DNA of 64,000 bases from NCBI GenBank assembly GCA_008632985.1, contig QPGO01000026.1, positions 558,001-622,000 on the forward strand. The letters run 5' to 3'. Shown here piece by piece: positions 4,633 through 61,568 of the stretch (its first letter is position 1; each line of letters opens with the position of its first letter). The notes below the pieces were generated by a model. It made no database searches. It saw only the letters and a program-made list of their open reading frames with translations, and was not told the origin of the DNA. This DNA is from Psammoneis japonica. Its lineage: Eukaryota. The position numbers and the translations under genes were made by a program.

Positions 4633-4859
4633 GCATGAATGCATCTTTCAATTCTCTGTCAGTGATTTTGCAGCAGTGTTTATGCACATATCTATATATT
4701 ATTTAACAATGACGTTTTTTCTCAGCCTCTTCAAAGGAGTCGGCACCACAATTGTATTTCCGTCTTCAGATAGAACAGCATCTCTGGGTGTAAAGGACTT
4801 TTCCAACTCGGCCACCTCCGACCTCATGTAACCTCTACTCTAGTCCTATCGTGTCTCAC

Positions 4860-6410: not shown

Positions 6411-6442
<32 letters not shown>

Positions 6443-7760: not shown

Positions 7761-8160
7761 CAGACGCGTTCCAGCCCTAGGTGGGAGCTCGTAGTACTGA
7801 CGTGTGACAACAATAATTTTTATCATCCGTCGTATGTTTCGTACGTAGATTTCTACGTGTGATATTTAAAAAAAATTGTCCAGACTCGCTGTTTTGCGAA
7901 GCCCCAGACGTTTTATATAACAAATTTATAGAAACAATAATGCGCCAGTTACATTCTTCAATGTCTGAAGAATGTAACTGGCTAAGTAAAAAATGATGTA
8001 CTTCCATCATGTGCGAGTTTGTGCGTTCGCAAAATTGCCTCATTTTCTGTTGGCGATCATTGACATTTTAATTACCGTATAATTTTACTACGGAGCTCGC
8101 ACGTAGAAGTCTACGGGCCCAATGTCACACGGATTCCCACCTACGTCTGGCACGCGTCTG
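7761..8160. mobile_element. 400-bp MITE-like element with terminal inverted repeats starting CAG (Tc1/mariner-like)
   Basis: 7759-7786 and 8135-8162 are inverted repeats matching 25/28. CGTGTGACA (7801) and TGTCACACG (8123) extend the symmetry. The interior is AT-rich with no credible ORF. Confidence 0.65.
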
Positions 8161-8162
8161 CA

Positions 8163-16594: not shown

Positions 16595-16889
16595 GATGTG
16601 TGCTTGAGTGTGCCTTGATCTCTCTTCAAAACACAATGAAAGTTGGGGGATGACGATATGCTCCAACACTTCGATAACATATAAACAGTACCATAAACTG
16701 GAAACAGTGCACGCTTTTTCTGTGTCGCTCGCGCCTCGCGGCATGTTATCGCGGTGTCGGAAGTGTAGGACGGATGCACGGACGGACGCTCCGAACATGC
16801 GAGATAATTGTGTGTCCATAGTGCAGTGCGGTGTGCGTGTCGGAGTGAATGGAATTTTTGAAGTGCATGGAAGATGATCTGACAATGAT

Positions 16890-19490
16890 GATTCACGTCA
16901 CAGAAGTTGAAGTTCACTGCTTTTGTGTGTGTGTTGTAGCCATGATTGGGCATGTGCAACTGTGACCAAGACGGAAAGCATTTTGCAAACAACGCGGCTG
17001 GTGTGCTCTTGTCCCCCCATTTGGTCCAGAGTTGCTTCTGCTCCTGACAAAGACAACTCTTTGATGATGCCAAGCACAGCAGATGTGAGAGCCATTTGCT
17101 CTTGCTTTTGAAGCACACAGTGGTTTGTCTCTGTGTCCTGAGCTTCATCAGGACATCTTGTTTGTGGCTGGCCTTGAGAAAAGTGTTGCGCTGGTGCTCA
17201 GAAGAGCTGGTTGAAAGACGCTGAGGAGTTCTCTCCTGCTTTTGCTCTCAATTTCTCCACTCTCCAATTCATCGTCATTTGAAATGTCAAAAATGTCATC
17301 ATGAGCAGGGCAGTCAGAGAACACAAGGGCAAGGGCTCCTGCTTGGGGTTTTGCTGCAATTTGCTCTTGCACATGATGGGACCTCCTCATGGCCACATGA
17401 TCAAGTTCTTGGGGGCATGTTCCTTTGGGGCCAGTGTGTTGTCAGGAGCCAGCATCCACAGTTCTGAGCAAGAACTCCAGTGCCAGACTGTTGGCCACTC
17501 CATCCTCTGAGCCCAGCAATCCCATCTGCAGCTCCAAGTCTGAGAGCTGCAGTGCACTGCATCTTTGATGATTTCATCCTCGGAGCCAAGCACGCCAAGC
17601 CATGAGGAGCAACTCCATCAGCCACACCAAGCAATGTCCCTTCCTTGGCACCTTCAATGGAGCCCACTGCCATGCCATCTAAAGTGCCAAGTGTGGACCA
17701 CAGCAACCACCCATCAAAGCCTCTGTCATGTGAGCCAAGTGATGGCCCATCTCACACACCTCTTCATGCTTTTGCCATTTGTTGATTTGGTTGGCTCGTG
17801 TGGCCTCCCCCATGGTGAAAAAAATTTTCCCTGAAAAAAAAAAATGACAACTTTCAGTTGACAAAAAGGTGCAGAAAGTTGATTGGTGACAAAGGCTGCA
17901 ATGGTGGCTGGAGGCTGCAAAGCTGCGCATCATTGAGCACGCTCATTTGCTGAGAACAGCACATTGCGGGGGGGGGGGGGGGGGTGATGGGCAACAGACC
18001 AGCAAATTTTTTCCTGTCCAATGAGTGGACAGTGTTGCAGCCAATGCAGACACTGCAAATTTTTGTTGTTTTGTTCAAGAATGGAGAACCTCAATTTGAG
18101 CCACAGTTTCAACAACTTTGAGGCAACTCCCAGAAGCAACTTGTTGCTGTTTTGTGCCAGCACAGCACCAGTGCTGTTGAATGATGTGAATTGTCACACA
18201 AGTGTTCTCACGCAAAATGCATTTTTTGGGACTTGCTCATGGGAAAATTTGTGGCTGTTTCAGAATGCCTCCACATGCCATGGAATGTCTCCAATGTGAG
18301 CTGCAGCTGCTCACATTTAAAGCCAAAGTTTTTGTTGGATGCCAACATGGTGGGCTGACAGGACAGCAGCCAGAGGCCACTTGTGTTCAACAAAAAGTTG
18401 AAAAATGGGTTGCTTGGGGGCTGGAAGTTGTTCATTGGGTGCTCCCAAAGCCATTGTGTCACAGCTGATGTTGGCACTGTTCATTTTCCCTCTGCAGAGT
18501 CAGAGCTGTGATGGATGGTAAATCAATTTTTAAGAAACAAGAACAATCTTCCAGAAATGCACTTGGGAAATTTGCACATCAGGCAGTGATGAACACGAGA
18601 ACCCAAGCGCTCAAGTGATCACAGATGCAGCCCCCCAAAGTGTTGAGTGTTGGACATCCATGTCACAGGAAATGCTCACAACAGGGTGGCTTGGGAGCTG
18701 TGCACCGCAGCCAGAAGATGGGAGAATGAAGTCCAAGTCAAGTGTTGTTGCACACAGAGAGGTGCTGGGCTTGCAGAGCATGAGTGGTGCAATGATGCCT
18801 TCAACCATCACCTGAACAAAAGGATGCCACAATTGCATTGAGTGCATGTTGGGCAATGTTGGTCAGAAGATGGGGTTGTTTTTGGTGGCCCTTGCTCTCT
18901 CCATTGCACAGGTGTCCCATGATGATTCAACCAATTCTTTGCCTGCACAATTTTCTGAAAGACTTTGGCACTGATGATGGATGACGATGAATTGCGCACC
19001 CCTTCAGTTGACACTGGTGGACCAAGTCAGCACCAACAGGGGGTGAGCCACTCCTTTCTGCAGATTGGCCTGCATGGGATGCAACCACAACTTGCATCCT
19101 CAGGACCAGTGCTGGCTTGAAGAAAGGTCTGCCCCATGGGTTCATCATGGGCAGTGTCCGGCTTGATCTCACCCACCTTGCAGCAGTGGCAGAAATGTGG
19201 CTTTGGCAGCACTGAGCTGCAACCAGAGAACCAATCTGCCTTGGGCGTTTTGCTCTGCAGACAATGTTGTTGCCATTCATTGTCCCAAAATTCCAAGCAC
19301 AACTGGAGTGATGCCCAGCTGAAGCAAAACCCGCTGGGGTGTGGTGTTGTTGGGGTGTCTGAATGCCATTTTGGATCTGCTGGGGACATGGAAATAAACG
19401 TGGCACCATTGCAAAGCTGTCGTTCTGCAGATGATGCCATTGCCATTGATTGCCGTCAGTTCCAAGTTCTTCTAAAGCAATGCAGGATGA
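16890..19490. mobile_element. Degenerate TpA- and CpG-depleted domain C (TE relic, family unknown)
   Basis: Very few TA or CG over about 2.6 kb; a poly-G run near 17968-17984; many short Cys/His-rich ORFs. Confidence 0.6.
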
Positions 19491-20802
19491 TGTTCTCGTT
19501 TTCGTACGCGATCGGCGATCGGGTGTGAACAACACGAATAATTTTTGTATTCAAAAATAGACACTAATAAATAACCTTATTCAAATGCCACGGTAATTTC
19601 AGTAGAAACGCGGGGATGACCTAAACTTGTATTTTTTATTTATCAGTGACTCGTTTCGGTCGTGCGTCGTGCGTCGATTGATTCTTCCCGTGCAGTGACT
19701 GGATCTCTCTCAGATCAAGCACATCGCTTTGCAGCACTTACTTGGGTCGAGAATGAAAGGAAGAGTAATTTTTAATTGTTGGGTTCGGTTTGCGAATGCG
19801 ATTCCACGAACAACACTTATCGGGGTTCGGATTGATTTCTCGTATTGTTGTCAACATTTATCTGGATTCGAACCGTAGTTCGTATCAAGATTCTTGTTTC
19901 GCGGTCGTCGCGATTCTTGTTTCTGAAACATTTAATGTGCTCTCCCTGATTTTCATTTTGACAGCTCATAAAAAGCCGCAGGTCCAAAGTGAAGAAGAGG
20001 AAGCATCCGCATTGAAATCACCAACGTTTCGCAATGGAAATGAATTGTTACAGCATGCGGCAGCAGCCGTGTTGCAAAAAGCTCCGTCTCTGGCAGTTTC
20101 TCCGTCGTTATGGCGGAGTTCGGGATTTGGGTGTCAGGTTGATTGGCAGCGATCTCTTTATTTTCATGTGCAGCAGTCTCGTTGCGGCATGTCTACAGCC
20201 CATAATTGTTTCAACTTTTCCCCACACCCTTCTCATAATTTTTTCAACACGAAAAAAGCAAATCGTTCTTGTTGTAAACAAACGCACACACGCTCTGAAA
20301 GGTAAGCTTTCCCCTCGTTTTGCCCCTCTTTGCTCGTTTTACCATGGTGCATGCACGTGAGCGAGAGAGCGCTGCCGAGAAAGCGCTCGGCGTTGTAGTT
20401 CTCAGGTCAGTCACAGAAAACGGTGGATTATCCCCTTGCTCTTCGACCCCCTGATCAATAATGGCTGATACTCTGGCCATGCCGTTTGCGAGTCCAGTGT
20501 GGTGGTTGGACGCATTGCTGATCTGCCACCAGTCAAATACAAACGCCTCCGTAATGTGCAGCTTTGTGATTTTGTTGAAAACGGACATGTTGCGCGGTCG
20601 ATCGTTCTCGCGTCCTAGCTGGCACCACACATGTTCTGTCACGAAATGGAGGTAACGATGAGACTGATGACCCGCACACCTGTCGTCGATACTATGTTCA
20701 TTCGTCACGAACCATGTTGCTCTCCATCAGATGCAAATATGTTGCTAACGTTTGCGTTGCTTTTGCTGTTAAGATCAAGTTGAGAACCTTTGACGGCAAA
20801 CC

Positions 20803-22479: not shown

Positions 22480-25400
22480 ATTCCACACACCCAAACATGG
22501 CTGGTCTTGATTCTCTTGGATGTAATCAAACGAATGCAATCAATTGAATCGCGCCTTGCACCGACAACAGCTCTTTTTGTGTTTCCTGCTCCTCACTTGG
22601 GACACGCCAAAATCTTAGCTTCGTGTTAACATGGAAGTGTGGTGCCACAGGGACTGCAACCCCAATGCCCTCACACTGAGCAAGACTCTTGCCAATGACC
22701 AAAGTCCCTTCCTTAGAGAGGACAACAATTCTCTCCAAAGTTGAATCCAAAAGGGAACTGTGTCTGCAACAAAGGCCTGCAGCATGTGCATCGGGATCCT
22801 CTCACTTGCCCTCTGCAAGCAAAATCCAGTTCATCTCCAGTGGCTTGAGAGGCTGAAATGAGTTGTTTCACACACACTGACTAAATGGGATTTTGACATG
22901 CATGCAGTTGCAACCCCATCATTTGCGGCAATGTCAATGGCCAGGATCATCCTCTTTGGAAATGTGTTCTGGGTGAATGCCAGAAGTGCCCATCCCATCC
23001 AACTCCATTGTTGGGACAGAGTGAAAGTCCCAATTGTGCCCCAAGTTTTGTTTCAATGGCACACTTGGCTGCAAAACATTGTTCCAATCACAACACATGT
23101 TCATGGAAGCATGTCCTGTTTGTGAGGCAGATCCAAATGGGAACAAAGGTGCAAAGGTCAAACTGAAGACCTTGTTGACAAGGTTCCACAAACCAACAAG
23201 GGTCTTTGTGAAAGAATGCTGCACCCCAAGTTCAAACAAGCTGCATCACCACCTTCCCCAGGTGACCATTGTTGGGGAAAATCATTGCATGGAAATGCAT
23301 CACAAAAGGCATTTGAGTTTTGCAAGACATTTGGGTCAATGCCCAACAGCATTTTCACATTTGCGAACTGCTCCAAGCATCTTCCATCTGATTGAAATGA
23401 CCAAATTTATGAGAGTCATTGTGGCAACAACCAAACAATGTCTGCACAGTGCTCACATGTTGCGCCAGCATTTGTGGTTGCCAAAAAATTGTCCCGTTTT
23501 GTCTGTGCAACCCCCAGAAGATGACAATGCAATCAGAGGCATTGTTTGGTGTTGTTGTTGGATGGTGGCACAACCATTTGTTGTGGGCTCCAATGACTGA
23601 CAGGGTCAGTCAGATTCTTTCTGGCTTTCAGTGCAAGCAGGAGCAGTTGTGCAAGTCTTGTTGTTAGAGTGGTGCTCCAAGTTGGCAGAGGCCATCACCA
23701 ACAACAAAGAAATGTTGCAACTGCACTTCTCAGAAGGCCCAAAGAAGAAAGACTTTTTCAAGGAGCCACTGGCTCACATTGCCAATTCATGCAAGGTTGC
23801 TCCCAAACTGCAGTGGTGCCAGTTTTGCAGAAGGGTGCATTGTCATCATTGCACAACTGAAGCCAAGATGCAAGACACTTGGACAAAATGTGTGAAGCAG
23901 ACAAGGGCACCAAAAGGTTGCAACAACTGGGAGACAAAAACAAAGAGGAGGAGCAGGGGGGGGAGGCACATGGATGAATCAACTGAGGAAGACAAGGGTG
24001 ATCAAGAGGAAGAGGAGGAGCCCATGGATCAAAGGCAGAGAAGAAGGAGAGCATGTGAGAGGCACATCACACACAGCAGGTGGAGATGTTGAAAGCCATT
24101 GCTGGAGTGGGCAATGACAAGAATCTCATTGGCCTTCACAGTTCAAGGCCAAAGCCAAGAGCACCAAGTGCACTTTTGTTTTGTTGTTTGAGCAAAGAGG
24201 AGTGCACCACCAAAAAGAAAGGGAGATGACTGAGAGAATGCATGACAATGCTCAATTGATGTTGCAGGTCAAAAAATTTGTTTGGGTTGATCGAGGTTCA
24301 CAGGATGGGAAGAAACCATGGCCTGGCAATTCCAAAGGAGCTGTTCCTCACTTGTTTGGTTGCTTTGCTGAGCCAAACCCTGGCAGCATGTGTTGCACAA
24401 ACAACAGCTTGCCAAGCCAGCAGGCACATTTGATGGCTGTCCCATGCCAACGTGTGTGGGCCTCATGTCATGTGCTGAACACAAACCTGACAGAGTTCAC
24501 AAATTGAGTGGAAAGTGGATGTGATTTGCAATTCAACACAGATTGCAACACACAGAAGATGGAGTCAGGAGGAGATTGGTGCTCTTCCACATCTCACGTG
24601 GGGTGCTGATTTTGTTGGCTGCACCCTGCATGGCAACCATGTGATGCATGTGACCCTGGATCAGGCTGAGCACAATTTGAAGACACAGTTTTTAGATGTT
24701 TGGGAGGGGGTTGAACGACTGGAAGCCAGACGATGGTTTTTGCCAACAAGCGGCCCATGCCTTTGAAACACTTGTGTGTTTTCATCCCTTGTCATTGCTC
24801 TTTGTTGCATTGGCAGTCTGGAAATGAGAGATTGTGTTGCAATCGAAACATCTGCCAACCAGACCAAAGCTGACAACAGCTGCACATCATTTGCAAGGAA
24901 CATGCTGAACAGCTGTTTGAAGGGGAAAAGTTCCCACCAAAAAACTCAAAGATGAAGTTTTGCAGCAGCTTGGATTGAACCATTTCCTTGGAAGTGGGTG
25001 GTGAATTTTTGTGACGACCTGTGCAACGATGACTGTGTGACTTTGTGCCCCCCATCTGGCGAACAACCACTGCATTGCCTTGCATCATGGGTGGATCTTT
25101 GATTCTGGTCACTGTTTTGCATTGCCAGCAAGTGACATCAAGTGCTCAAATTGGCTGGTGTCTTGGAAATGAGGAGCCCAAGGTGAAACATGTGTGGCAA
25201 ACAAGCTCCTCCGGGGAAACAAGTGACCACATGGTGTGCTTGCTGCTGGTTTGAACTTCCAAAGGCAGCAAAGCAGCCGGGGGATGGCAAAAGGAAAGCT
25301 TGTGAGCTGTGACTCAAAAAATGTGGGATTGTGCTGGGTGTTCCATCCAGTTGCACAATGCAAGGTGACAACCATGGTGCTTGTTTTCATTTTCCCATTG

Positions 25401-25620
25401 CCACCTTGTTCCTCAGACTCTTTGCTTTTCTTGCTGTCCACTCCCGTGCTGTCCTCCTCCTCCTCCTCATTTTCATTGTCATTCTCTTCCTCTTACTCAT
25501 CAGTTTTGCTGTCATCATTGTCATCATCACACTCCTCAAAACAATCCAGTGACTCATGCTGGCAGATCGCATCAAGAATGGCTTCATGCTCGCTCATCCT
25601 CAGTCAAATGCCGGCCGGCC
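22480..25620. mobile_element. Degenerate TpA- and CpG-depleted domain D (TE relic, family unknown)
   Basis: About 3 kb with almost no TA, ending just upstream of the SNRNP40 start. Confidence 0.6.
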
Positions 25621-25733
25621 GCCCAGCGCGAGCGCGCGGGAGTGCACCATCATGGTCTGTCATTCACCCCCCTCATCCCTCAACACTCAAAGGTCAAAGG
25701 AAGACGCACACAACACACAACATTGACGATGCG

Positions 25734-26780
25734 ATGGCGGCGGTTGATAGCAACAGCAGCAACATGGACTTGCCTCCCTCCAAACGGGCTCGAACCAACG
25801 ATATGATGGCTATAACTGAGTATCAAGACCCTGTTGATATCAGAACGTCATCACTCGCGGAACCAACCATGAAACTTACGGGCCACTTGGGCTCGGTCTA
25901 TGCGTTGCAGTATGATCCTGCCGGAGAAGCCTTGTGCAGTGGTTCGTTTGATATGATGTGCTTGTTATGGAATGCATCCGGTAATTGCGAGAATTATAAT
26001 ATCCTCAAGGGCCACAAGAATGCCATTTTGGACTTGTCGTGGAGTTTGGATAGTCAGCACGTGGCGACCGCATCGGCCGATACGAATTTGGGCTGGTTCC
26101 ATGCCAACACGGGGGAACGTGTCAAACGATTCATGGGACACACGGGAATTGTCAATTCGGTCGATACGGCGCACACCATGTCGCCCAATTTGTTGGTGAG
26201 CGGGAGTGATGACTGTACGGCGAAATTATGGGATGCACGCATCAAGGGCGCAACCGGAGACTTGGAACACGAGTTTCAAGTCACAGCTGTAGCGTACGCG
26301 GATGAAGCTCATACGGTGTATACGGGAGGGATTGATAATACAATTTATGCGTGGGATGTCAGAATCATGAAGAAGACCATGGGCATGAAGGGTCATACAG
26401 ATACAATTACGAGCCTGGCGCTACACCCCAAGGGCACTCACTTGCTTTCCAACAGCATGGATGGCACTCTCAAGACGTGGGATATTCGTCCGTTTGTGGC
26501 AGACGATAAGAACCGCCGACATGACAAGACCTTTGTTGGGGGCACTCATGGTGCTGAAAAGGGATTGCTAAAGTGCGCTTGGAATCCAGACGGGACCATG
26601 GTGACGGGTGGAAGTGCCGATCGGATTGTACACGTGTGGGACGAAATGACGGCTGAAGAACTCTACAGTCTTCCCGGGCATACCGGCTCTGTCAACACTG
26701 TAGTGTTTCATCCAAAAGAAAACGTTCTGGCATCGGGATCATCAGACAAGACTATTTACGTCGGAGAGTTGAGCCAATAG
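25734..26780 (+). CDS. SNRNP40: U5 snRNP 40 kDa WD40-repeat protein
   Basis: RTSSLAEPTMKLTGH, seven WD40 repeats, WDIRPF, EKGLLKCAW and LPGHTGSVN...FHPKE...SGSSDKTIYVGEL. The true start is taken as ATG 25734; the ORF-track upstream extension lies in stop-depleted DNA. Confidence 0.9.
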   Translation: MAAVDSNSSNMDLPPSKRARTNDMMAITEYQDPVDIRTSSLAEPTMKLTGHLGSVYALQYDPAGEALCSGSFDMMCLLWNASGNCENYNILKGHKNAILDLSWSLDSQHVATASADTNLGWFHANTGERVKRFMGHTGIVNSVDTAHTMSPNLLVSGSDDCTAKLWDARIKGATGDLEHEFQVTAVAYADEAHTVYTGGIDNTIYAWDVRIMKKTMGMKGHTDTITSLALHPKGTHLLSNSMDGTLKTWDIRPFVADDKNRRHDKTFVGGTHGAEKGLLKCAWNPDGTMVTGGSADRIVHVWDEMTAEELYSLPGHTGSVNTVVFHPKENVLASGSSDKTIYVGELSQ

Positions 26781-47330: not shown

Positions 47331-47639
47331 CTTCTGTGGCCAAGAACGTAATAAATGATTCTATGTTGTCAACAATCTATTGTATCAATAAATGATATGG
47401 CTAGGCCGGACAAGGTGAAGCATTGCAGCTTTTGTAAGAGTAATGGCCGTTGCGAAGAGGAAATTTTTGATTTCGACGCGACACGCAACGGCGGCGCCAT
47501 CATTCGCCCAACGCATGGGATTCAAACGCGATTCAAACGCGACCCCCCGTCAACCATCAAACACGACCAATAAATCTGGTTTGCACATTTCTTCTTGAAA
47601 GACACAACGAGTGGTGACAGCAGTGGCGAGGGACGACAC

Positions 47640-48231
47640 AAGACACTGCTGGCGCCGCCATGAAAACTGACTCTGGAGTTGTCATGCCATGTGCTTGACA
47701 TGAAATCTTGTTGGAATCTGTCAAGTCTCACCCTGGCAGAGGCTTTTTTTGCCAGCTTTGCATGTCTCTGACAATGCCAGATTTGCCAGCTTTGAATGGG
47801 ATCAGCAAAAAATTAAAAAATCTCAACAAGCATTTGGAGCAAGAGAGAGGCAGACACACAAGTGTTCTTTTGAAATCATCAGCGGCGCTTGAGCCCCCAA
47901 GCACGTGTGCAAAGCAGCTCCATCCAGACAAAAGGCAGTGCCACAAAATCTGTGACTTGGGCCAGAACACCAGCACTTGCTGGCCCTGGCAGCAATGCTC
48001 AGCTCTGAGTGTGAGTGCATTTTCTTGTTTGCTCTGGCTGGGTGCAGCCCATGTTCACGCAACAGAAGTGCGCTGACAATTCCATCTCTCACACAAGTGT
48101 TGTTGTGAAACAACCAACACCACCAGCACAGCAACATGACTTTTGCCAGAGGAGAGCACAGTGTGAGAGGGACTTGCAAAGACAAGCAAGATGTGCTTGG
48201 TTTGACTGACAGATGCAATGGTGCCCCACTG
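47640..48231. mobile_element. TpA-depleted relic DNA flanking the Copia insertion (left)
   Basis: TA and CG are both rare; continuous with 55353-56560 once the Copia element is removed. Confidence 0.5.
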
Positions 48232-48236
48232 CATTG

Positions 48237-48515
48237 TGACAGAAATTGAAGGCAAATGGCAAGAATTCAAACAATGACTCCTTGCTGCTGTCTAAACAGC
48301 AGATGAGTCTCTGCTCAGAGACTGTTGCAGGAGCCGAAAGACGTGCAAGTCGGCACGATCGGGCCACTGTTGTTGTCATTCTTGTGAGCCTTGTGGCTCG
48401 AAAGCAAACTGCATCGCGCACAAACGCACGGAACCAAAGCACACAAAACTGTGCGCGGTGAACTAAACAGCGCGCGACATTTCGCGCGCACCTGAATCCT
48501 GTTCAAATCCTGTCA
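48237..48515 (-). repeat. 3' LTR (279 bp)
   Basis: Direct repeat of 55072-55347, preceded on the minus strand by a purine-rich PPT-like AAACTGGGGAG (48516-48526). Confidence 0.95.
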
Positions 48516-51500
48516 CTCCCCAGTTTGCTTGAGGAGTCACAGAAACAGATTCGACTTCGGGTGGAATGAAGTTCCAGAACATGAGGGGGCGGAGAAGGTC
48601 CCAGATTTGGGAGTGACCCCAATGCTTGCTGAGAATGTCAGCAGGGTTGCGGGAGCCTTCGATGAAGTGGAGCTTGAGGTGGCCAGAGGCGATTGCCTCA
48701 CGCACACGGTGGAATGACAGTGCGGTGTGTCGCTTGTGTAACTTGGAGTGCGGGATGGTGGCACTGTCTACAACTGACTTGTTGTCACCGAACATGCAAC
48801 TGACACCACGGATCGGGACGCCAAGGCAGCGCAGGGTGATGCACAGGTCGACAATCTGCTCGACACAAGTCCTTGTGGCAACAAATTCAGACCCGCAGGT
48901 CGCAGTCTCCATGGTGGCTTGCTTCTCAGAGAACCAATCAGCCGGGAATTTGTTGAGGAAGTGGAGCATTCCCATGACAGAGCGTCCGGTGAGCATGCAA
49001 TGGCACAAGTTTGCATCGACGCAGTGGGTGGCAGTGACGAACTTGCCAAGGGGCGGTGGAGCGTCCTTCGGGATCATCTCTTTTGCTTCGCCATGCATGG
49101 AATGCATCCATTCATGGGCCGGAGCAGGGAGATCCGAACAGTTGGGCTCTTCCGTGCAAACGTGGAGAGCGCCATGTCGCATCTTGGAGAGGCACCCACA
49201 GACGCGTTTGGCACGATCCAAGTGGCCTTGACGGGGCGCAGCTCGGAAGCTAGAGAGTGACATGATGGCCGTGGTGATGTCAATTCAACCAAGAGACACT
49301 GCCCATTGGAGTGAGCCAACAAGGGACTGGAACTTGTGAATGCCATCGGGCTCCAGCAGTTCGGAAGTGTCCAGTTCGGGGTGGTCACCCTTCTCCAGAG
49401 GTGACAGGGCGTTGGTGGCAGGTTTCTCCCCAAACAGTCGGGTGCAGCTGTCGACCATGCACTCGATGTACTTGCGCGGAGACAGGCTCAAGGTGCCATC
49501 GGGATCCCGGGAAAAGTCGCAACCCAGATGGAACTCAATGGGTCCCGTGCCCTTGAGCTTAAACTTGTGCTTTTCCGTGAGAGTGTCGACGAAAGATTGA
49601 GGGTCCTTCATGGCAATGGCGAGGTCATCCACATAAACGGCAATGTGCTCACAGTGGTTGCCGTTCCTGCGCACCCAAATGTTGGGTTCGGCGCGGCAGG
49701 GGAAGAAGCCTTCAGCTCGCAGGCAGTCGGCGAAGCGCTTGTGCCAGCGGAGACCGGAGCTGCGCAGTCCATGCAGGGCCTTGTGGATGACAAGGATGTG
49801 TCCTTCGAGTTTGCCAAATTCGGGTCCGGCTACAATGTAGAGCTTCTCCTCAGTGGTGGCTTCAAGATGGGCATTGCCAATGTCGGTGGCCCATGTCTCC
49901 AACTCGTTGAGTTCGGCCAGGAAAATCATCAGCCGAAGGCCACGGAGGGAGACTGCTCCGGAGCAGACACTGTCGACAGGTGTGTCCGTGAGGTGCCCAT
50001 CGGCCACGAGTCGTGCCTTGTGGCGACTGTCGTGTTTCACGTCGTACACCAGGTGCACTCGGATCTTCTTGTGTCCCGCAGGAGGAGTGGAAGACTCGAA
50101 GGGCCCGCAGTCATGGAAGACTTCGTATTCCTCGAGTTGGTCCATCTCGAGATTAGTTGCGTCTCCCCATTTGCGGTTGCTGTTGCGCTCGTCTAGTGAC
50201 ATGGCGTGTTTGCAGTTCCGGGGAACTTCGCATCCGCACTTGCAGCGAGGTGCAGTGCGGAAGGAGCGAAGCTTGGCTTGGTTGGCCATGCAAAATGGCT
50301 TCTTTTGGCGCCTCGCGATGGTGCGGAACCACTTCCAGCCATCCGTGTCGAGAAGTCCGTTCTCTCGTGCATAGATGGCGCAGGTGACGGGGTCGTCCTT
50401 GGCGATGATGGCGAGAGGCTCGGACGTGATCTCCCCACTTTCCCGTTCAAGCATGATGTTGTAGCTTGAGCCTTTCCAGGTTGGGTCATGAGGCTTCAGA
50501 GGTCCTTCGTGTGACACGATGCGTCGGAATTTCCAAACAGTGGTGTCTTCGTCTTCTTGCTCAATGTGATTCATGATGTCGTTGCAGGCAAGGACTTCCT
50601 CGCATTCATCGTTGTTGACAGAGCAGACGAACTTGGCAAGCTCGGGATTGCCGTTCACTTTCCATTCGTGGTCTTCGATGGCCTTGACGATGCGAGCTCT
50701 GTGGCGTTGTCCATCCTCTTGTGGCTGCATGAGGAAGGCACGTCCGATGATGTCTTGCGGATCGAAAACTGGCATCTTGGGTGTCCTGATCTCCCCATCA
50801 GGAGAATCGATGGGGTTGTCGTCATGGCAAGATTTGATGATGGGTTCAGGTGGCTCCCCATCAGGAGGAGCAAGACGCAGGTTTTGAACGGCAGGATCGG
50901 TGGCAGCGGAGCGCATGTTGGACCGGCAGAGGATCTTCTGAGTCTCGTCAGAGAGAATCTTGAAGGTCATCTTGTGGCCGACGTGCTCAGCAATGCCAAC
51001 GAAGCGTCCACGCAACTCACGGGATTCGGACGGCCAATCGGAGTCATCGAGGTGGAAGCACACGGGTTCCCACCAGTGAAAGCGAAGCAATGGGCTGATG
51101 TCCGGGGTGGAGCCAGTGAGAGTCTCGAGGGGCGTGCGCCAGTGGAGACGTGGGGACACTGTGTGGTTGAGCATGAAGCACACACACATGAGCGCCAGCA
51201 GCCATGTGTGGGCGGGCGAACCAAAACGATCCATGACAGTGTTCGCCATGCGCTTCACGGTCTGGCATCGACGCTCGGCAAAGTTTTGGTGTTGCTGGTG
51301 AGGCTCACTTTGCCAGCTGGAGATGAAGAGGGCACGTGGGATCCCAAGCACTTTGTTGCTGATCTCAACTTGAGCACGGTCACCAATGAGTTTGGATGGG
51401 GCACCACGCTCACGGATCTGATCCTCGAGTGTGTTGACAAACTCTTTGTCCGTCTTGGTGCCGCAGACGTCAGTGACGGTAGACTCGGTGCCAACAAACA

Positions 51501-54132
51501 GTTGGGCGCTGGTGCAACCAGAGTCGATGGCCGGGGTGTCGGCACAAACGGTGTCAGTGGCGACAGGCTCATTGCGGCGGTGCACATTAAGGGCGGGGTT
51601 GGGTGATTTGTGGGCCTTCCTAAGGTGTGTACCGGCGGGCATGCGGGCGTGCTGCGTGGTGCAGTCAAAAGCATGACGGACCGCATCGGCAGGCAGGAAG
51701 CCAAAGTGAGGCCGAAGAGACTCGAAGGGGGGGTCCTTGGGCTGTACAGTGCGCTCCGGGGGCGGAACGTCGTCGCCCTTGGGGTCAATCGCGTGTGGAT
51801 GACACTCATGGAACACGTCGTCGTTCGGAATGAGGTGATCATCGAGGGCGGACGCGTGATCGGCAGACAAGGAAGCGGACATGATGGTCTCGTTGACAAC
51901 GACACGATGACGGCAGTTGCCGCATTCATCAAACAGGTTGGCAGTGGGATCGTCCTGCAGGTCAGAGATCGCGTCGTGCCACTGGTCGTCTTCAGTGACA
52001 GAGTGATCGAGGATGGAAGGATCCCATGTGTCATCACCGGTGAGGATGACATGGGGCAGGGTGTCCCATTCGGCGTCAGTGCAAGGTCGCATGGCAACAC
52101 AAGGCAGGCCGGCCTTGATGTCAATGGGGATGACATGGCCATCAGGAGTGGCAATACGTTGCAAGCCGTTGGGCACCTTGACAGAGCGATCGTTGACATC
52201 CTGTTTGTGCCATTTGAGCTGGCCGCAGGAATGGATGGTCTTGCCCTTGCCCGTGCGTGCGCATTGATGGAGGATGGCGATGACGGGACCACGCTGGGTC
52301 TCAATGACGGCACCAGCGGTGACAACAGGGATGTCCACCAATTGATGGTCGTCAATGCCCTGGACGTCGACTTGGCGAGAGGTGCGTGCAATGACGTGAA
52401 CGTCGTCACCAGCAATGCCGCCGTTGGCCCCACGATCGACTGGAGCACCAGTGCATGTGGAGCGATGAGCAGAGGCAGAGCAAATGACCTTGTGGTTGTC
52501 AACGCGACGGTGAGTGCGGCCGTCAAGTTCTGTGTCATCAGCAGAAGCTGGCGGGGTAGAGGGAGCGGCGGATGGCCCCGGTCGACTGGCATTGGGGGCT
52601 TGGTTAGGAGACAACAGACGTTGCAGATCACCGGGTGGCAGTGGCTTGCGCTTGGTGAGGTGCGCCAGGATGGGATCATCCGAAGTGGCACCCACATTTG
52701 GAGCGGAGTCACCAGAGTCAGCAGGAGTTGTGTTGGACAAGTTGACATCACCGTCTCTCCCAAGGCGTTGGTCGTGAAGGTTGGCCGTAACAGACTCATG
52801 GCAGTTGCTGGCTCGCGGGTTGCGGGGAGGCGGACGAGAATGCTCAAGGATGATCGCCTTGGAGGAATGGGGCAACGAATCCCAGATCCGTTGGTGGTCG
52901 GGAGGGAGACGTTTCCATTGGTCACCGGTGAGGCTGGGACCGTGGGTGTGGGCAGCATTGGCCTGAAGGACGTCAATGTCGCTGTCAATGTCGTAGAACA
53001 CATCGTCGGACAGTTCCTCGGAGCAGACGTTGTGTGCGCACATGGCGCGTCGGGGAGCTCGAGGTGTCGTCTTGGGTTGAAACGCACTGTCGCATTGAGC
53101 TGCCGCGGAGAGGAGCAAGCCACAGCATTGATCGCATGTGAGGCTCTTGCCACTCTGCGTGCGATGCTGATCAGCTTGGTTCTTGACAGCACGGAGTTCC
53201 TCGACAGGGTGTGCGGCATTCTCGAGCATGACGCGCTTCTGTCCTTCAGAGAAGTGGTCACTGGCCGGGATGAGTGCCTCGCACTTGCGCAACTGATCTT
53301 GCCAATGAAGGATGAACCCGTGGGTCGGACCTTTCCAAGTGCCATCACCAAGACGTGCGGTGGTGAGGCACGTCAGCAAGGTGGAGGACTCGACAGATGC
53401 GCGGGTGGAGGCGAGCGCGTGCTCAGACAAGGCGCGGTGGACAGTCTGGGCGTCAGAAGACCCCACATTTTCGCGGATGAGAGCCTTGCCCTTGTCGGTG
53501 AGAAGGATGCGTTCGAAGATGGCGAACATGTGCTTTTGCTGTTCAGCAAAGAGCAGTTTGTCTTCGGGGCTGGTCGGTTTGTACGACGAGTCTAGAATGC
53601 ACTCGACGTCTTGGGCACGGGCTTGTGCCACCAGTGAGGTGTGCCAAGTGTGCCACTGCTTGTCGGATTTGAGAGCCGTGAAAGCGGTGGGATCACGCTT
53701 GATGCCTTGCTTGAAGTCCCGCACCAGGTCGCGTGCCTTGGTCGGGTTGGTGACATGCGGAGGTGCGAGGGGTGAGCTGCCGATGGACACAGAAGACATG
53801 CAGTCGGGGCTGAGGCGGCAGGCAAGGAACTCGTCATGCGTGAACAACGAGGAGTCATTGGCAACGTCAAGACCTTTGTGTGCTTTGACAATGTGCAGAC
53901 CAACTAGAGCTGCTAACATGTTCTTGTGACCACGGGGCAAAGGGATCACATTGGTGCCGTTGTCGCACTCAAGCGAGTCGATTTGGGACAGCATGAACGT
54001 GAACAGTTCTTGATGCGAGTCCGTGCCGTCTTGGGCCAAAGCCAAACGAAGAGGGCTCCCAGCACCTTGGGCAAGCACGGTTCCAACAACGTGCTCGAAA
54101 CCATCGGTTTGTTGCTGACGAGTGAGAACCAT
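48463..54132 (-). pseudogene. Copia gag-pol polyprotein, inactivated by one in-frame TGA and massive Tyr->Cys/His substitution
   Basis: PR VDRGANG; IN D(TVCAD)...D(RAQVE)...QNFAERR; RT KARLVADGH and VYVDD; RNaseH GDNKSV and NPADILSK. TGA at 49285-49287 sits where Arg is expected (WAVSLG*IDI). Confidence 0.95.
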
Positions 54133-55054
54133 GGTAGACAAAAGTGGTGTCAGGACAAGCAATTCTTGTTGGGAAGCGAAGGCAGACTTGAAGCTTGGGT
54201 GAGAATGGACTTGACTTGAAACAGACTTGACTTGAAATCTTGAACTGCCTTAAAATCAGAAGTCGCCGGGCTTTGCTGTCCCGTTCGTTGTTGAGTGCTA
54301 AACTTCCCATCCGGTCCGTAGAGTTGTGCCGGCACGTCCGAACCCGCAGCCAGTGGCGCTTTGGGTTGCTTGCGAGCAGAGCAGCGGGTTGCAAACCCCT
54401 GCAGGTGAGCTGACCAGAGGTGGACAAGACCCCCGAACCATTCTTGTTTTATGTCGGTTGGATTTCCCGATCAGGCTGGCCAGTTGACGCAGGCGTTGGG
54501 CGCTGTGGACGAACGAACAAACGCGGGAAAGCACCCTCGCCCCAACGCAGGCTGTGATCACGGCTGCTTGCTCTCACAGTCATCCTCGTGGACCCAGTGG
54601 AACTGCAGAGCACCAGCAGTCTGGGGCAGATCAGGTGCAATGGACTCGGTGTGCTTGTAGAGTGGCAGCAAAACCGCAGTCCGAAGAGTGGGCACAGGTT
54701 CTTGGCCGTGAAGATGTGTGCATGTGTGCATGTCTTCAGCGACGAAGATCCTTGGACATGTGGGGTTCTAGCCCGTTGACTGATGAACAGGTGTGCCAAG
54801 GGATGAGGATCAAGGACAGACTTGGACATGACCATTGAATGCATGTCTTCAGCGATCAAAGGCAGCACAATCAATCCAGACATCCAGCGGCAAGGAGACT
54901 TGACGGTGACATTAACTTCCTGCCGATGCCCTGGCATTGAATGCGCGTAGACTTGCCGATGTATGTAGAACATGTACGGAGGTCCACGTAGAATTGAAAT
55001 GGCGTCGTTGGTAAATCAACGACGACGATGGCGGTTGCTCAATGGGTTGACAAT

Positions 55055-55071
55055 GAGCAAGACTGTCAATC
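55055..55071 (-). other. Putative primer-binding site complementary to a tRNA anticodon arm (half-tRNA type)
   Basis: GATTGACAGTCTTGC lies directly after the 5' LTR, with no TGG; its complement reads G-CAAGA-CT-GTC-AA-TC. Confidence 0.45.
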
Positions 55072-55347
55072 TGACAGAAATTGAAGGCAAATGGCAAGAA
55101 TTCAAACAACAACTCCTCGCTGCTGTCTAAATGGCAGATGAGTCTCCGCTCAGAGACCGTCACAGGAGCCGAAAGACGTGCAAGTCGGCACAATCGGGCT
55201 ACTGTTGTTATTCTTGTGAGCCTTGTGGCTCGAAAGCAAACTACATCGCGCGCGAACGCGCGGAACTAAAGCACACAAAACTGTGCGCGGTAAACTAAAC
55301 AACGCGCGACATTTCGCGCGCACCTGAATCCTGTTCAAATCCTGTCA
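55072..55347 (-). repeat. 5' LTR (276 bp)
   Basis: Direct repeat of 48237-48515. Confidence 0.95.
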
Positions 55348-55369
55348 CATTGTTTGCCTGACGGATGAT

Positions 55370-55371
<2 letters not shown>

Positions 55372-55404
<33 letters not shown>
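55372..55404. repeat. (AC)n microsatellite
   Basis: Read directly. Confidence 0.95.
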
Positions 55405-55405
<1 letters not shown>

Positions 55406-56560
55406 GGGCAACGTGTCAACAGCTGTGAGCAACTTGTCTCTCTCTTCTCAGAGATGCCACACACCTCTTTTCTTGCTTCTTGCCACATGAAACCTCTCTG
55501 TTGTCAACTCTCTTGAGCAGCAGCTTGCATTGTCACATGTGTTGTTGAAAAGTGCTGCTGTGCTGTTTGTGCAAAACTGCCCAGAATCCAGGTGTTCTTT
55601 CCACCAAGTGGCGAGAATGATCATGAAAAAGAAAGTGGAACAGTCAAGCACCACAGCAGCCACATGAGCAAAAAAAAATTTCAGCTTGCCAAAAGCCAGC
55701 TTCTTCTTGTGACAAACTTGGAGCTGCAGGTTGACTCATTTTAGCACACTCAAGCATCACAAGCAATGCACAGTGTGCTGGCTGGCACCAAGAGAGTGTG
55801 CAAGCAGTTGTCTGGGGGGTGGAGCACTGCACTTGCACGTTGAGCACCCCCATTCTCTCCCCCTCCTTTTTCTCTAACTTGGAGGGTCGCCTGCATGGCT
55901 TGGACATGTGCCTTTCTCATTGAGAAGTGCGCAGCTCATTTGCAACTCCACAGATCATTTTTTGACACTGCTGTGCTCTCCACCCCTTGTTCTGTTCTCA
56001 CACCTCATCCAGAAGATGGGCCAGTGCACTGGCGGTGCTCTCCAGATGATGCACTCTGCACCCAACCTGCAGCAGACCTTGTGTTGATGCACCGTGGATG
56101 GAAAAGGCTCTTCTGGTGCAGATGCTGGCAGGGCGTCTTGCATCACCACCACCAAGCAAAGGCACCAGTGAAGAGCAAACAGAGGGGCCACCAAAGCAGC
56201 GCGCTGCTCTTTTTGGGGGTGGGCCAGGTGGGGGTGGCGGGAGGGCTCAAGGGCTGGTGGCATTGTGGGTCTTCCAGAGAGGCAATGGGTGCACTTGGGA
56301 TTGCTCCCCTGAAGGATGGTTGAGCGAGAAGTGCTGTCCTCGGATCGAAGCATTTGCCCCCCCCCCCCAGCAANACACCACTGGCTCAAGAGGCACACAT
56401 CACAGATGACAACAGCTGCTTCTAAAGAGTGGCTGGAAATGTCATTAAAATTAAAGACCATCTTCCGCCTTCTCCTGTTCCCAGTAGATCCGTGAATTCG
56501 TTGCATTTTATGTGCATGATGCACAATGTGCTGTGTGATGGTGAGGCTGGGGTCAACGCC
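55405..56560. mobile_element. TpA-depleted relic DNA flanking the Copia insertion (right)
   Basis: TA and CG rare, TG/CA-rich; one N at 56374. Confidence 0.5.
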
Positions 56561-58040: not shown

Positions 58041-58150
58041 GCACATTTCGTCGAGAAGCAGCACATTCATATTTTTTCGGAATTTTTTTTTTGCATGGCA
58101 CCTCCTGTGAACACCAGCTTGACCTTGTCAACACTTTGGAGGCTCTGGAC
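58041..58150 (-). pseudogene. Short relic copy of the amidohydrolase 3' end and UTR
   Basis: cgtcgagaagcagcacat...cctcctgtgaacaccagcttgaccttgtcaacactttggaggctct aligns to about 62617-62710. Confidence 0.75.
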
Positions 58151-60260
58151 AATCTCACAAAATGTTTGAGTGCTGCCATCGCTTTTCTTGATGGAGAAGG
58201 CTCTGCTGGCACAGTTGCTGCCATCTCCCAAACCCAAGCTGGATGGTGGTGCCTTGCAGGCCCCTTTGTGGCCTGTTCTGGTTTTCTGTGTGGTGATTTG
58301 GCTGTGCTGGCTGGCAGCAGAAATTGGTTGTTGACTCCCAACTCTCTCTGGAAGTTTGTGCCAGGGTCTTGCCATGCTCTGTGGTGACTCACTGGTGGGC
58401 CTGTGCATGGAGTGCCACCTGAACAAAGCCAAGCTGTTCATCTGAGCACCTGACAACTTGACTGCAGAACAGCAGCAACACATGCTTGCAAGCACTTGCT
58501 TGGGCATCAGAGTGGCTGGGAGCAACAACTGAGCACATTTGGAAGGGACCAACATGGCTGACAAACAATGGTGATGACGGCATTGTGCCAACTGGAAACA
58601 AAGTGAGGCAGAGACAGATCTCAAAAAATCTGCTTGATTGTCCAGGTCTGGCCATGAGACCAGCCAAGACCAGGTGTGCCAGCAGACTCCTTGCCCCAAC
58701 AGACATTGTGTTTGCTGCACTGCTGGGTGCATGGGAGCAGGAGTCAGATCTTTGAGCACATTGTGAAATGGTGGTGGCACCATTTTGTTGTCACATTGCA
58801 GGGCATGAATGTTCCCACCAGAGCTTGCAGATGTGCTGCTCTGATGGGAGTGAACACAAAATGATGGTGATGTTCCAACTGTGACAGGGTTGTTCACCTG
58901 TCAACATGCAATCCTTTCTCCTGTCCCAGCATCCAACGATGGGTGATGTGATGACAGAGTTTTGTCTCTCTGGCCATCATCTTGTTGCTTGTTGGCAGTG
59001 GCAAAATCATGTTCTCCTGAGACCTGGGGCATGTTGCTGTGGGTGTGTCCTCATTGAATGGCAGCAGCAAAATTCGCCATGGCCGTGCCACCACACATTG
59101 CCGGTGGCTGGCTTTGTGCGCATCTGCCAGCTGCTGGCACTCCCTGAGCCTGGCATTTCATGCAAGTGGCTGGTGTGGAGTTCTGATGAAGCTGTCTTTT
59201 TCAGCTCCACAGCACATGATGAGTGTGGTGCTCTCTTTGCCAAAATGACACATTGCTCGAATGGCTGCTCAGTTTTCAGCTCTTGTCAATTTTGGGAGGA
59301 AAAATGACTCCCAAAGGCAAGAGGCAGCATCAGAGGCCAAATTTGTCACATCTCAACCATGCACTTAACTTGCATGGCAGCTCTAAGAAATGTGCTGGGG
59401 GGGCTCTTTTTTCCTGCAGACTTTTGTGCAAGGCCTGAGGGCACACACACTTGAGTGTGCAGCAGGGCTTTTGGATCCCCACAACCGCAAGGCATCTGCA
59501 CATTGTCATGGAATGAATCTGAGTGTCTCATGCAGATGAAGCATCTCCCATTGTTCTTTGAAGAAACTGTGGTGACACACAGATTTGTGGCAGCTGCAAG
59601 ACTTGTGCTGTTCTGAGCATTCAACAATGACAGATTTTTGGGTTGTTGTGTTCTAAAGGTGACCACTGCAAGAACATTTTCTCTGTTCACAAAGGCAGTG
59701 CAGAGTGTTGCATGTTCACAAAATGAATGTTGCCATTGCAACAGTGCTTTGTTTGAATTGGAGCTGAGCAGAACTCTCACAAGTGAGGGGAAAAACACTT
59801 CAGCTGCTGCTGGGCTGAGAAAAAGATGCTGCAGCTTGTGCACGGCACATGCAGGTGATGTGCAGCTTTGACTTCTGCAAATTTGTTTGTTTTGAAGTTG
59901 TTTTCATTAAAGTCACATGGGTAAAATCTGGGGAGGGGGCACTCTTTGTTTCTTTTGCTGTGATCATTTTTTAAAATGATTGTGTCGGTGTCTCCCGGAG
60001 CTGGTGCGTTCTTGTCCCTTTTGGCTGATGTCATGTGCAATCTGCAGAATGCCAAATTTGTCAACAACACTGCTGTTGCATTTTAGAGTTTTTAACCCAA
60101 TGGCTTTTTGGGTTGGCAAGTGCATCATGATGGATTAGATGATTGCACGCTGCACAGTCCGATGACCTTTGATGCCAATGCAGTGCCGTGTAGATGGGCT
60201 GTTGCAACTCCATTGGCACAGCAACTCATCATGTTGACAACTCACAGGCATGTGTGAAAC
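58150..60260. mobile_element. Degenerate TpA- and CpG-depleted domain G (TE relic)
   Basis: Almost no TA over about 2 kb. Confidence 0.55.
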
Positions 60261-60339
60261 AAGTGCAGAGTGTTTGCCTGCCCCACAGCCACTGGCGCTG
60301 CAGTTGTTGACTTGCCAATTGACTCAAGAGAGAGCATGC

Positions 60340-60850
60340 GCGTGCGAGAAGAACCAACAAACAATGTGCACATCACAAAGTCTGTGAGAACCCTGATTGC
60401 ACACTGCATTTTCAGTTTTTGTCACTGTGCAACTGTTTGCACCATCAAAGATTGGTGCTTTTATGACCATGGAAACTTCACACAACAACAAAAGGAAAAA
60501 TGTGGAAATGACATTTTCCATGTTTGATGCAATCTTTGAACAAGCCCACAATGGAGCCATTCAAAGTCCGCCAGGAGGTGTCCGAAGACATTTTGATGTG
60601 GATCATTGGAACAATGAATCCAATTTGTCCATGATCAAATGATGCTTGGAGAATTGCACAGAGAAGCCAACTCTGTCTTTCAGCATGAACTGGGAGAATT
60701 TTCGCACATTGCCAACCATGTTGGTGCTCCTCGATGTGATGGCATTGATTCTGACCCATCTTGGATTGCTCAGGTGTGTGGCAAAGTTGTGGATCACTTT
60801 CATTTTCATTTTGGTGATGTTGGTGAAATGAGAGATTGGGGCTGTCCTGG
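60340..60850 (+). pseudogene. Hypermutated, truncated paralog of the 56933-57784 methyltransferase-like gene
   Basis: MLGELHREANSVFQHELGEFSHIANHVGAPRCDGIDSDPSW aligns with MLGELYGEADSVFEYGLGESTYIANHVGVPRYAGIDSDPLW. Confidence 0.9.
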
Positions 60851-61171
60851 GTCCTGGCCATGAACCCCAAGCTGTCAAAAAATTGTTTGTTGCGAGCACG
60901 CAGCCACCAGCACTCAGTTGGGACCACCATGGGTTTGAGCCAACAGCCAAAATGTGAGACAACTTCAAAAGCGGCTGGCATGCAGCCAGAAGTCCAAAGA
61001 GATCATGACAATGGCAAACCACATGGCTTGCACTTCGGCACGAACCATGCCAAACCAGTGGGCCAGCGGGCCAAACCGATTTTCGGAGGGAGACCGACGT
61101 TAAAGAAGAGCCAGGACGAGTTCCTCTCGAAATGCATCCAGAAATCCTCAACATTTTGTCAGCGTGCATCA

Positions 61172-61514: not shown

Positions 61515-61568
61515 CATTAGCACGAAAGCAAGTCGTACCTACCTATCACACCAAGTTGTCTGTCCAAC

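Follow-up and report, generated by a model that had tools for sequence, protein, structure and literature searches.

A TpA-targeted hypermutation signature in and around a copia retrotransposon of the diatom Psammoneis japonica

The two long terminal repeats (LTRs) of a retrotransposon are copied from one template, and the differences between them must therefore have arisen after reverse transcription. What process could set the LTRs of one element apart almost solely by transitions, with TA or CG in one copy facing TG or CA in the other? The question is raised by an LTR retrotransposon at positions 48237-55347 of a 64,000-nucleotide stretch of the genome of Psammoneis japonica (GenBank assembly GCA_008632985.1, contig QPGO01000026.1, positions 558,001 to 622,000 of the forward strand), which is the window throughout this text. 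An earlier reading made from the letters alone (the original prediction) had taken the LTR pair as a record of mutation after insertion. In our analysis, the copia element was probably inserted into a block of chromosome that had already been stripped of TA and CG, and was then hit in the chromosome by hypermutation at TpA together with decay of CpG. Both processes end in TG or CA, which accounts for LTR differences that pair TA or CG in one copy with TG or CA in the other.

The LTRs lie where they had originally been placed, with TG..CA ends and with the target-site duplication (TSD) CATTG intact on both sides. When aligned, they differ by 19 transitions, no transversion and one 3-bp indel. 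CG faces TG or CA at seven sites, TG faces CA in three doublets (six nucleotides) and AA faces AG at one site, all as first counted. Of the five sites at which TA had been seen to face TG or CA, four are sure; the fifth (gttatt/gtcatt) hangs on the placement of the gap. The gap taken as a lost GTT unit gives 19 transitions, while MAFFT and a pairwise aligner place it as a lost GTC and give 18. Steps at CG and TA make up 68 of the 276 positions yet hold 18 of the 19 differences (P = 1.6e-10, binomial test), and the absence of transversions among the 19 has P = 4.6e-4 at a transition share of 0.667. Terminal repeats of related metagenomic elements served as a control. Nineteen were found, of which 10 (100% identical assembly overlaps or duplications) and two internal repeats were left out; among the 60 differences in the seven usable diverged pairs were 20 transversions and 21 transitions outside CG and TA steps. 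The changes of the LTR pair are counted as three on the sense strand and two or three on the antisense strand. Overall divergence of the pair is 6.9%, compared to 1 in 208 positions (0.5%) outside the CG/TA steps, which supports the earlier warning that LTR dating would be inflated.

By its sequence the element is classed as a Ty1/copia LTR retrotransposon, inserted in minus orientation into a pennate-diatom genome and CoDi-like by resemblance. With the CoDi-type Ty1/copia elements of diatoms (PMC2806351) it shares a diatom host, the RVT_2 domain, short LTRs that come with a TSD of 5 bp, and a polyprotein length of about 1,900 aa. The longest open reading frame (ORF) of the element, 49285-54249 (-), has 1654 aa; past a single in-frame TGA (49285-49287, a column at which homologues have Arg) the frame continues to 48463. 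It aligns to residues 1-1834 of a 1,845-aa homologue in one tblastn high-scoring segment pair without a frameshift. We found 762 protein relatives, the closest at 63% identity. As to the copia order, with the integrase ahead of the reverse transcriptase, Pfam reported RVT_2 alone on the element frame, and precomputed Pfam annotation of homologues of about 1,850 aa likewise gives only PF07727. The minus-strand orientation is assigned because of the long ORF, the RVT_2 match and the GGGGAG tract adjoining 48516, and therefore the 5' LTR is the copy at the higher coordinates. The original label of the TA-bearing copy as the 5' LTR was right, solely given this orientation. With no frameshift, one stop and so little LTR divergence outside CG/TA steps, the insertion would count as recent by ordinary measures.

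The direction of change in the element body was polarised with protein outgroups, using 704 alignment columns in which 53 homologues show at least 80% conservation. The element departs from the homologue consensus at 89 of these columns. Conserved Tyr is most affected: 21 of 35 residues have become Cys, six His and three Phe, and five are kept, which places 27 of 35 (77%) at Cys or His. Conserved Arg has changed to Cys (three), His (two), Trp (one) and a stop (one). The single-step codon changes comprise 26 T[A>G]N, 10 N[T>C]A, 11 CpG>CpA and four CpG>TpG; no CpA>TpA or TpG>TpA change was found at the conserved codons of the element. The 36 polarised changes from TA to TG or CA stand against four A>G changes in other contexts. 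These counts show a TA-related process that is TpA-specific and runs from TpA to TpG or CpA, from A:T to G:C. They show as well that TpA loss outpaces CpG decay in this element. The internal region 48516-55071 has a relative abundance (rho) of 0.14 for TA (42 TA in 6,556 nt) and 0.85 for CG, at a GC content of 57%; rho(TA) is 0.12 in the 3' LTR and 0.43 in the 5' LTR.

A mutator of the polymerase-eta type was considered for the TA changes and rejected. The motif of this polymerase is WA>WG, with A>G at both TA and AA, and the single AA/AG difference between the LTRs had originally been thought to fit it. That fit fails in the element body, in which the base preceding a polarised A>G is T in 26 cases, A in one, G in two and C in one, and in which rho(AA) is 1.09. 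An apparent excess of CpG>CpA over CpG>TpG (20:6) was likewise set aside, since non-synonymous sites are detected with a bias; in Arg codons taken by themselves the ratio is 5:1 in the opposite direction.

The same signature extends beyond the element. A 1-kb composition profile of the window detected blocks depleted of TA and CG that total 22,698 of the 64,000 nt (~35%), and both flanks of the insertion are stripped in this manner (Table 1). Old blocks (16,029 nt) have rho values of 0.04 for TA, 0.25 for CG and 1.81 for CA/TG, against 0.56, 0.92 and 1.23 in the remaining DNA of the window (41,302 nt). The borders are sharp, with rho(TA) of 0.01-0.15 inside and 0.45-0.85 in the adjoining genic DNA, and the normal DNA keeps its rho(CG) of 0.92 though it includes many intergenic spacers. 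The profile shows a regional process, confined to particular chromosomal blocks that reach beyond the element, with genic DNA normal. Given the TA and CA/TG values of the normal DNA, a weaker genome-wide TpA pressure is possible in addition.

One of the blocks contains the pseudogene dupB. It is a copy of dupA, which is intact, and the pair can be compared directly. Over 412 aligned bases, TA of dupA has become TG or CA in dupB 12 times and the reverse is seen 0 times; the corresponding comparison for CG is 13 against 2. Homologue-conserved Tyr has become His or Cys in dupB, and Arg has become Cys, His or Gln. Within the pair dupB alone is converted, and dupA is untouched. A search in purine/pyrimidine code, which is blind to transitions, found no source for the blocks elsewhere in the window, dupB excepted. 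Pfam gave no family above the cut-off on 75 ORFs of the other stripped blocks, and one sub-threshold ChlI match; these blocks may perhaps derive from old transposons.

Table 1. Coordinates of the element, its parts and the stripped blocks within the window
Positions	Strand	Feature	Basis
4851..7750	.	TA/CG-stripped block, 6 TA in 2900 nt	
8151..10700	.	TA/CG-stripped block, 4 TA in 2550 nt	
16851..19500	.	TA/CG-stripped block, 7 TA and 26 CG in 2650 nt	
22651..25800	.	TA/CG-stripped block, 7 TA and 36 CG in 3150 nt	
47451..54900	.	Stripped stretch in the profile (left flank and element body)	
47451..48231	.	Stripped host flank, left part of the element's landing block	
48232..48236	.	Target-site duplication CATTG, 3' side of element	sequence, LTR ends
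48237..48515	-	3' LTR, 279 nt, TG..CA ends, 2 TA and 18 CG, heavily converted copy	
48463..54249	-	Gag-Pol polyprotein frame, 1928 codons, without frameshift, one in-frame TGA	
48516..48521	-	Purine tract GGGGAG, polypurine-tract-like (putative function), sense-strand 5' neighbour of 3' LTR	
48516..54900	-	TA-stripped element body	composition
49450..50082	-	RVT_2 reverse-transcriptase domain, Pfam PF07727, E=5e-26	from residues 1390-1600
54901..55347	-	Spared segment (leader and 5' LTR)	composition
55072..55347	-	5' LTR, 276 nt, TG..CA ends, 7 TA and 23 CG	
55348..55352	.	Target-site duplication CATTG, 5' side of element	sequence, LTR ends
55353..56450	.	Stripped host flank, right part of the same block, includes the (CA)n run adjoining the element	
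56864-57784		dupA, intact gene	
58051..59900	.	TA/CG-stripped block, 4 TA and 12 CG in 1850 nt	
60101..61150	.	Stripped block containing dupB	
60348..60882	+	dupB, pseudogene copy of dupA	

Stripped DNA has a further property. Change from TpA to TpG or CpA seldom creates stops, and therefore the element frame stays open and long spurious ORFs arise on other frames. Long ORFs in several frames and on both strands lie in the stripped DNA because TAA and TAG stop codons have been lost: 4953-5795 (+), 4955-5809 (-), 6463-7380 and 25227-25800. Antisense to the element are 50515-51606 (+) and 51607-53595 (+). The frame of a WD40 gene, 25227-26780, is lengthened at its upstream end by about 190 codons that lie in a stripped block. 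A weaker stripped block lies at 31151-32000.

The TA dinucleotides that survive point to an extended target motif. YTAR accounts for 22 of the 38 TA left in old blocks (odds ratio 7.8, P = 2e-9) and for 15 of 37 in the element (odds ratio 3.9, P = 2e-4), the reference in both cases being normal DNA, with 237 of 1,589. YTAR offers T-A-Y on neither strand, and therefore we take the preference of the mutator to be T-A-Y. The element has a strand bias, with Tyr>Cys (sense A>G) 21 times and Tyr>His six times (P = 0.006). Nevertheless, the changes show that both DNA strands have been affected.

We compared the element with 78 metagenomic loci that carry related elements. Their median rho(TA) is 0.68, and only five of 827 1-kb windows in these loci have a rho(TA) below 0.2. 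Loss of Tyr to Cys or His is seen only in L066, L077 and L059, which keep 1 of 22, 3 of 13 and 10 of 22 conserved Tyr, respectively; the other 75 loci have at most one of each change. L066:1-2766 and L077:1-1168 belong to another copia family; the two copies share 95.8% identity and have rho(TA) of 0.02 and 0.06. Their Tyr residues have mostly become His or Phe, and the His:Cys ratios of 11:4 and 6:0 are the reverse of the bias in the Psammoneis element. This difference in strand bias between copies argues against editing of sense RNA as the general cause. The TA loss of L066 and L077 is almost wholly common to both, and therefore the pair is silent on independent events. L059 is intermediate, with rho(TA) of 0.31. 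CpG decay at Arg codons with Tyr intact is found in L057, L013, L010 and L039, the first of which keeps 10 of 31 conserved Arg and has seven Cys, eight His and three stops in their place. Such CpG-only decay indicates that TpA loss and CpG decay are separable.

Contigs of a public sequencing run gave allele shares among family copies. The family is present in very high copy, with summed word depths of 60,000-290,000 compared to ~58 in the flanks. Among 40 listed of 528 variable places, TA holds 99.8% of family depth at 50005, 89% at 48927 and 86% at 48494, where the element has CA or TG. At four TA sites polarised by homologues (conserved Tyr), TG, CA and TA are all present among the copies, which supports the earlier proposal that each TG/CA doublet goes back to a single ancestral TA that was resolved on a different strand in each LTR. 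None of the contigs listed covers the stretch in full. In one, of depth 31, 47665-48185 is joined to 55417-55595 and the element is missing, with ~10% divergence and many small indels. Either an empty allele on a second, very divergent haplotype or a paralogue would explain this contig, and its high divergence may reflect independent conversion of TA and CG. A (CA)n microsatellite lies at 55374-55404, ~25 nt beyond the 5' LTR, where sequencing reads appear to be cut.

The order of events that we favour would be as follows. The element would have entered a block that was already silent and stripped of TA and CG. The faster of two region-targeted processes would be TpA-specific A:T>G:C hypermutation, which would yield TpG when it acts on one strand and CpA when it acts on the other, with T-A-Y preferred; it would act on both strands, with a sense A>G bias in this copy. 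The slower process, also region-targeted, would be decay of CpG to TpG or CpA, most simply by deamination of 5-methylcytosine in methylated transposon DNA. The signature of this CG component lies in the seven LTR sites, 15 codon events and the rho(CG) of old blocks. We infer that the TpA process acts on chromosomal DNA and that it is linked with a silent or methylated state, the latter because TA and CG losses share the same blocks and the same asymmetry between the LTRs. As for the chemistry, deamination of adenine to inosine in DNA is a plausible, though tentative, candidate. Alternatives are a modified thymine (e.g. 5-hydroxymethyluracil, 5hmU) that mispairs with G, and error-prone repair specific to TpA.

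The LTR changes would have happened after integration: the TSD is intact, the LTRs differ at five TA and seven CG sites on both strands, and family copies keep TA at places where the element has CA or TG. With TA and CG taken as ancestral at the LTR sites, the 3' LTR has lost five of seven TA, close to the loss of Tyr TA in the element body. The 5' LTR and leader may have escaped as an active, unmethylated promoter that was protected within the silenced domain. The original proposal of mutation on chromosomal DNA after integration, on both strands, is strengthened by the same change from TA and CG to TG and CA in the flanks, in dupB and in five other blocks, and by an experimental precedent in Bigelowiella natans, the timing of the LTR changes being the inferential part. 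Its dismissal of RNA editing and reverse-transcriptase error gains from the signature in DNA that is not part of the element, as well as from LTR differences on both strands.

Several findings weigh against this account. The two LTRs of a single insertion are expected to age at the same pace; with TA and CG taken as ancestral, the 3' LTR has 11 single hits and the 5' LTR has one (P = 0.006), and a plain C>T polarity would balance the hits at nine and 10. The spared zone reaches ~220 nt into the leader. A TA>TG change at 48494 is common to both LTRs at a site where most of the family depth has TA, and therefore some changes predate this insertion. Family copies vary for the 3-bp indel, the deletion form having a depth of 10,871 of 30,807 in 12 contigs, and therefore shared variants could come from gene conversion. 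The T-A-Y preference is not strict, as two of five LTR events break it. Strand-coordinated clustering of events is absent (P = 0.33 for TA and P = 0.78 for CG in runs tests), and a processive single-strand deaminase is therefore not favoured. Lastly, no enzyme for TpA mutation could be identified within the 64-kb window.

The unequal hits keep gene conversion or recombination at the 5' end alive as an explanation, though an unlikely one; of the earlier claim that the pair records the spectrum of mutation, the non-random spectrum stands, and the assumption of an unmixed record does not stand as firmly. By this account the 5' LTR and leader of a TA-poor element were overwritten by a less mutated family member. 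The TA poverty over the whole length would have been inherited from a hypermutated source or made in place, and the LTR differences would be family polymorphism. The sparing is indeed block-like, as the opening 500 nt of the element contain 14 TA and each later 500 nt only 0-6; the 11:1 asymmetry of hits fits an overwritten end, as does an indel form that about one third of the family depth shares, and donors are plentiful, since the family is of very high copy. Against it, neither the TSD nor the LTR end is damaged, and a conversion tract would need to break off in the outermost bases of the element. The 5' LTR also has hits of its own (one CG>CA and three doublets), and recurrent hits at a few TA and CG sites would yield shared variants without conversion. 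Even if conversion did occur, the process from TA to TG or CA stands.

Editing before integration, either by an ADAR- or ADAT-like enzyme on RNA or by an APOBEC3-style deaminase on cDNA, and then fixed by integration, is very unlikely. It would explain the excess of Tyr>Cys over Tyr>His, and one TA>TG change is common to both LTRs. It cannot make the LTRs differ, as both are copied from one template, and they differ at 19 sites. Nor does it account for LTR changes on both strands, for the same signature in flanks, a pseudogene and anonymous blocks outside the element, or for the opposite bias of L066 and L077. To our knowledge, ADARs are known only from animals. On the other side, known A-to-I editors favour an A that is preceded by U, as a preprint also states (bioRxiv 10.64898/2026.01.13.699255).

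A process of C>T changes only, like repeat-induced point mutation (RIP), is yet less probable. It would turn CpG into TpG or CpA, and CpA or TpG into TpA, in repeats, and would make the TA of the 5' LTR derived. In its favour are the balanced hit counts of the LTRs under this polarity and the standing of RIP as the classic repeat-targeted transition process (PMC7296669). For the element body it is already contradicted, since conserved codons have no CpA>TpA or TpG>TpA change against 36 changes of TA to TG or CA, and a single stop is found in 1928 codons. Moreover, the stripped blocks are nearly free of TA rather than enriched in it, and dupB lacks TA at sites where the Tyr of dupA is backed by homologues.

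We hold as similarly improbable a uniform neutral bias, by which TA and CG would be unstable genome-wide and the blocks would be the oldest unconstrained DNA, with no targeting. The low TA and raised CA/TG of normal DNA agree with it. The rho(CG) of 0.92 in normal regions with many intergenic spacers, the sharp borders of the blocks and the sparing of the 5' LTR and leader inside a block do not. The element, too, has lost ~77% of its Tyr TA, yet it has no frameshift and only 0.5% LTR divergence at other sites. Finally, an assembly or base-calling artefact (systematic A>G and C>T miscalls at modified bases) would suit two converted dinucleotides that are both palindromic, like methylation motifs, but is scarcely credible in view of the public-run contigs that match the stripped flanks with 0 differences (the run may be the assembly's own data), of TA, TG and CA alleles at high depth among family copies, and of the same loss of Tyr to Cys or His in separately assembled metagenome contigs.

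The signature of TpA-targeted hypermutation has been described once before, and the Psammoneis case places it in a diatom and on a retrotransposon. The precedent is Bigelowiella natans, for which the available text of the preprint reports TpA-only A/T>G/C hypermutation of integrated DNA from nucleocytoplasmic large DNA viruses (NCLDV) and virophages (Mettrop et al., bioRxiv 10.64898/2026.01.13.699255). The rate there is ~6e-7 per site per generation, ~1000x background, in some mutation-accumulation lines only; reverse-transcriptase and DDE domains are over-represented among coding sequences poor in TpA, and the authors propose an ADAT2-like deaminase (same preprint). Insofar as that text describes it, the system resembles ours in A:T>G:C change at TpA, on both strands, in confined regions, with depletion of TpA and enrichment of CpA and TpG. 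The differences are several. The host of the precedent is a chlorarachniophyte, a rhizarian, and ours is a diatom, a stramenopile. The preprint describes giant-virus insertions as targets, and in the window an LTR retrotransposon, a pseudogene and anonymous blocks have been hit. Depletion is deeper here (rho(TA) 0.02-0.14) than in the NCLDV region of B. natans (0.45). CG is stripped in the same blocks here, and the preprint, as available, reports no CpG component; a further difference is the extended T-A-Y preference seen here. The evidence there is direct, from mutation-accumulation lines, while ours is comparative. If targets are to be foreign or selfish DNA as in B. natans, the copia element fits; dupB is a host-gene pseudogene, and the 75 block ORFs have no Pfam family. 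The words 'diatom', 'LTR' and 'retrotransposon' are absent from the available text of bioRxiv 10.64898/2026.01.13.699255, and by a term search 'TpA' and 'deamination' are absent from the 2009 CoDi paper (PMC2806351). Our literature searches found no diatom report of TpA hypermutation.

Resemblance to RIP of ascomycete fungi lies in a defence-like, regional transition hypermutation that inactivates transposons in place after integration. RIP consists of C>T changes mostly at CpA, creates TpA and stop codons, lowers GC and hits all copies of a repeat. Here, in contrast, TpA is destroyed, stop codons are removed, GC is raised to 57% and one copy of the dupA/dupB pair is hit. With no CpA>TpA change, depleted TA and an untouched dupA, the case is not placed in the RIP class. 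Context-specific transitions of the deaminase type that cripple retroelements are also made by APOBEC3 (C>U in cDNA) and ADAR (A>I in RNA; see PMC4866542). Those act before integration and on one strand and leave identical LTRs, whereas here the LTRs differ, both strands are affected and non-element DNA is hit; neither single-strand polarity nor identical LTRs were found, and we do not assign the case to this type. The share of CG>TG/CA in the LTR differences and blocks resembles methyl-CpG decay of silenced transposons, which leaves the TA loss, the faster process in the element, unexplained. Transposable elements of diatoms are major targets of DNMT5-dependent CG methylation (PMC9998398), a fact that agrees with the CG component.

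The locus extends the signature of TpA hypermutation to diatoms, the most important eukaryotic phytoplankton group, with targets that span a retrotransposon with timing from its LTR pair, a pseudogene and a third of the 64-kb window. It adds co-localised CpG loss, the T-A-Y preference and a spared 5' LTR, all of which are handles on the mechanism. Diatoms have genetic tools, and CRISPR knock-outs of DNMT5 exist in Phaeodactylum (PMC9998398); the mechanism therefore becomes testable. There are practical consequences as well. Ages from LTR divergence are inflated in such genomes, here ~14-fold (0.069 vs 0.0048); DNA free of TA and so without TAA and TAG stops yields long false ORFs on all frames that mislead gene callers; and hypermutated copies lose protein identity through Tyr>Cys/His. 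A broader possibility, which we hold as less likely than not, is a genome-defence mutator of diatoms, or of this lineage at least, that is tied to CpG-methylated silent chromatin and edits adenine in DNA at T-A-Y, so that it clears TpA from transposons, pseudogenes and other silent DNA and leaves behind the TA- and CG-free blocks that take up about a third of the window; together with Bigelowiella it would represent an old defence that spans the stramenopiles, alveolates and rhizarians (SAR) and mirrors RIP. If true, a SAR-spanning mutator would remove stop codons, unlike RIP, and would falsify LTR dating and gene calling.

Some minor observations concern other parts of the window. The tryptophanyl-tRNA synthetase (TrpRS) frame that neighbours the element is 71-76% identical to proteins of Grammatophora, Amphora, Seminavis, Phaeodactylum, Nitzschia and Cylindrotheca. 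The frame 63247-63696 (-), cut by the end of the window, has a weak Amidohydro_1 match (E=6.5e-6, just above the cut-off); this superfamily includes base deaminases, and nothing links the frame to hypermutation. The dupA/dupB family forms local repeats and has 1,414 database homologues and no Pfam family. The dupB and dupC tails, 61170-61514 and 62632-62949, are a 93-94% identical pair beside an FkbM-type methyltransferase frame (61521-62594). Imperfect tandem repeats lie within long frames at 13499-13725 (72-81 nt) and 30578-30710 (69 nt), and their copies differ mainly by transitions of the CG/TA type.

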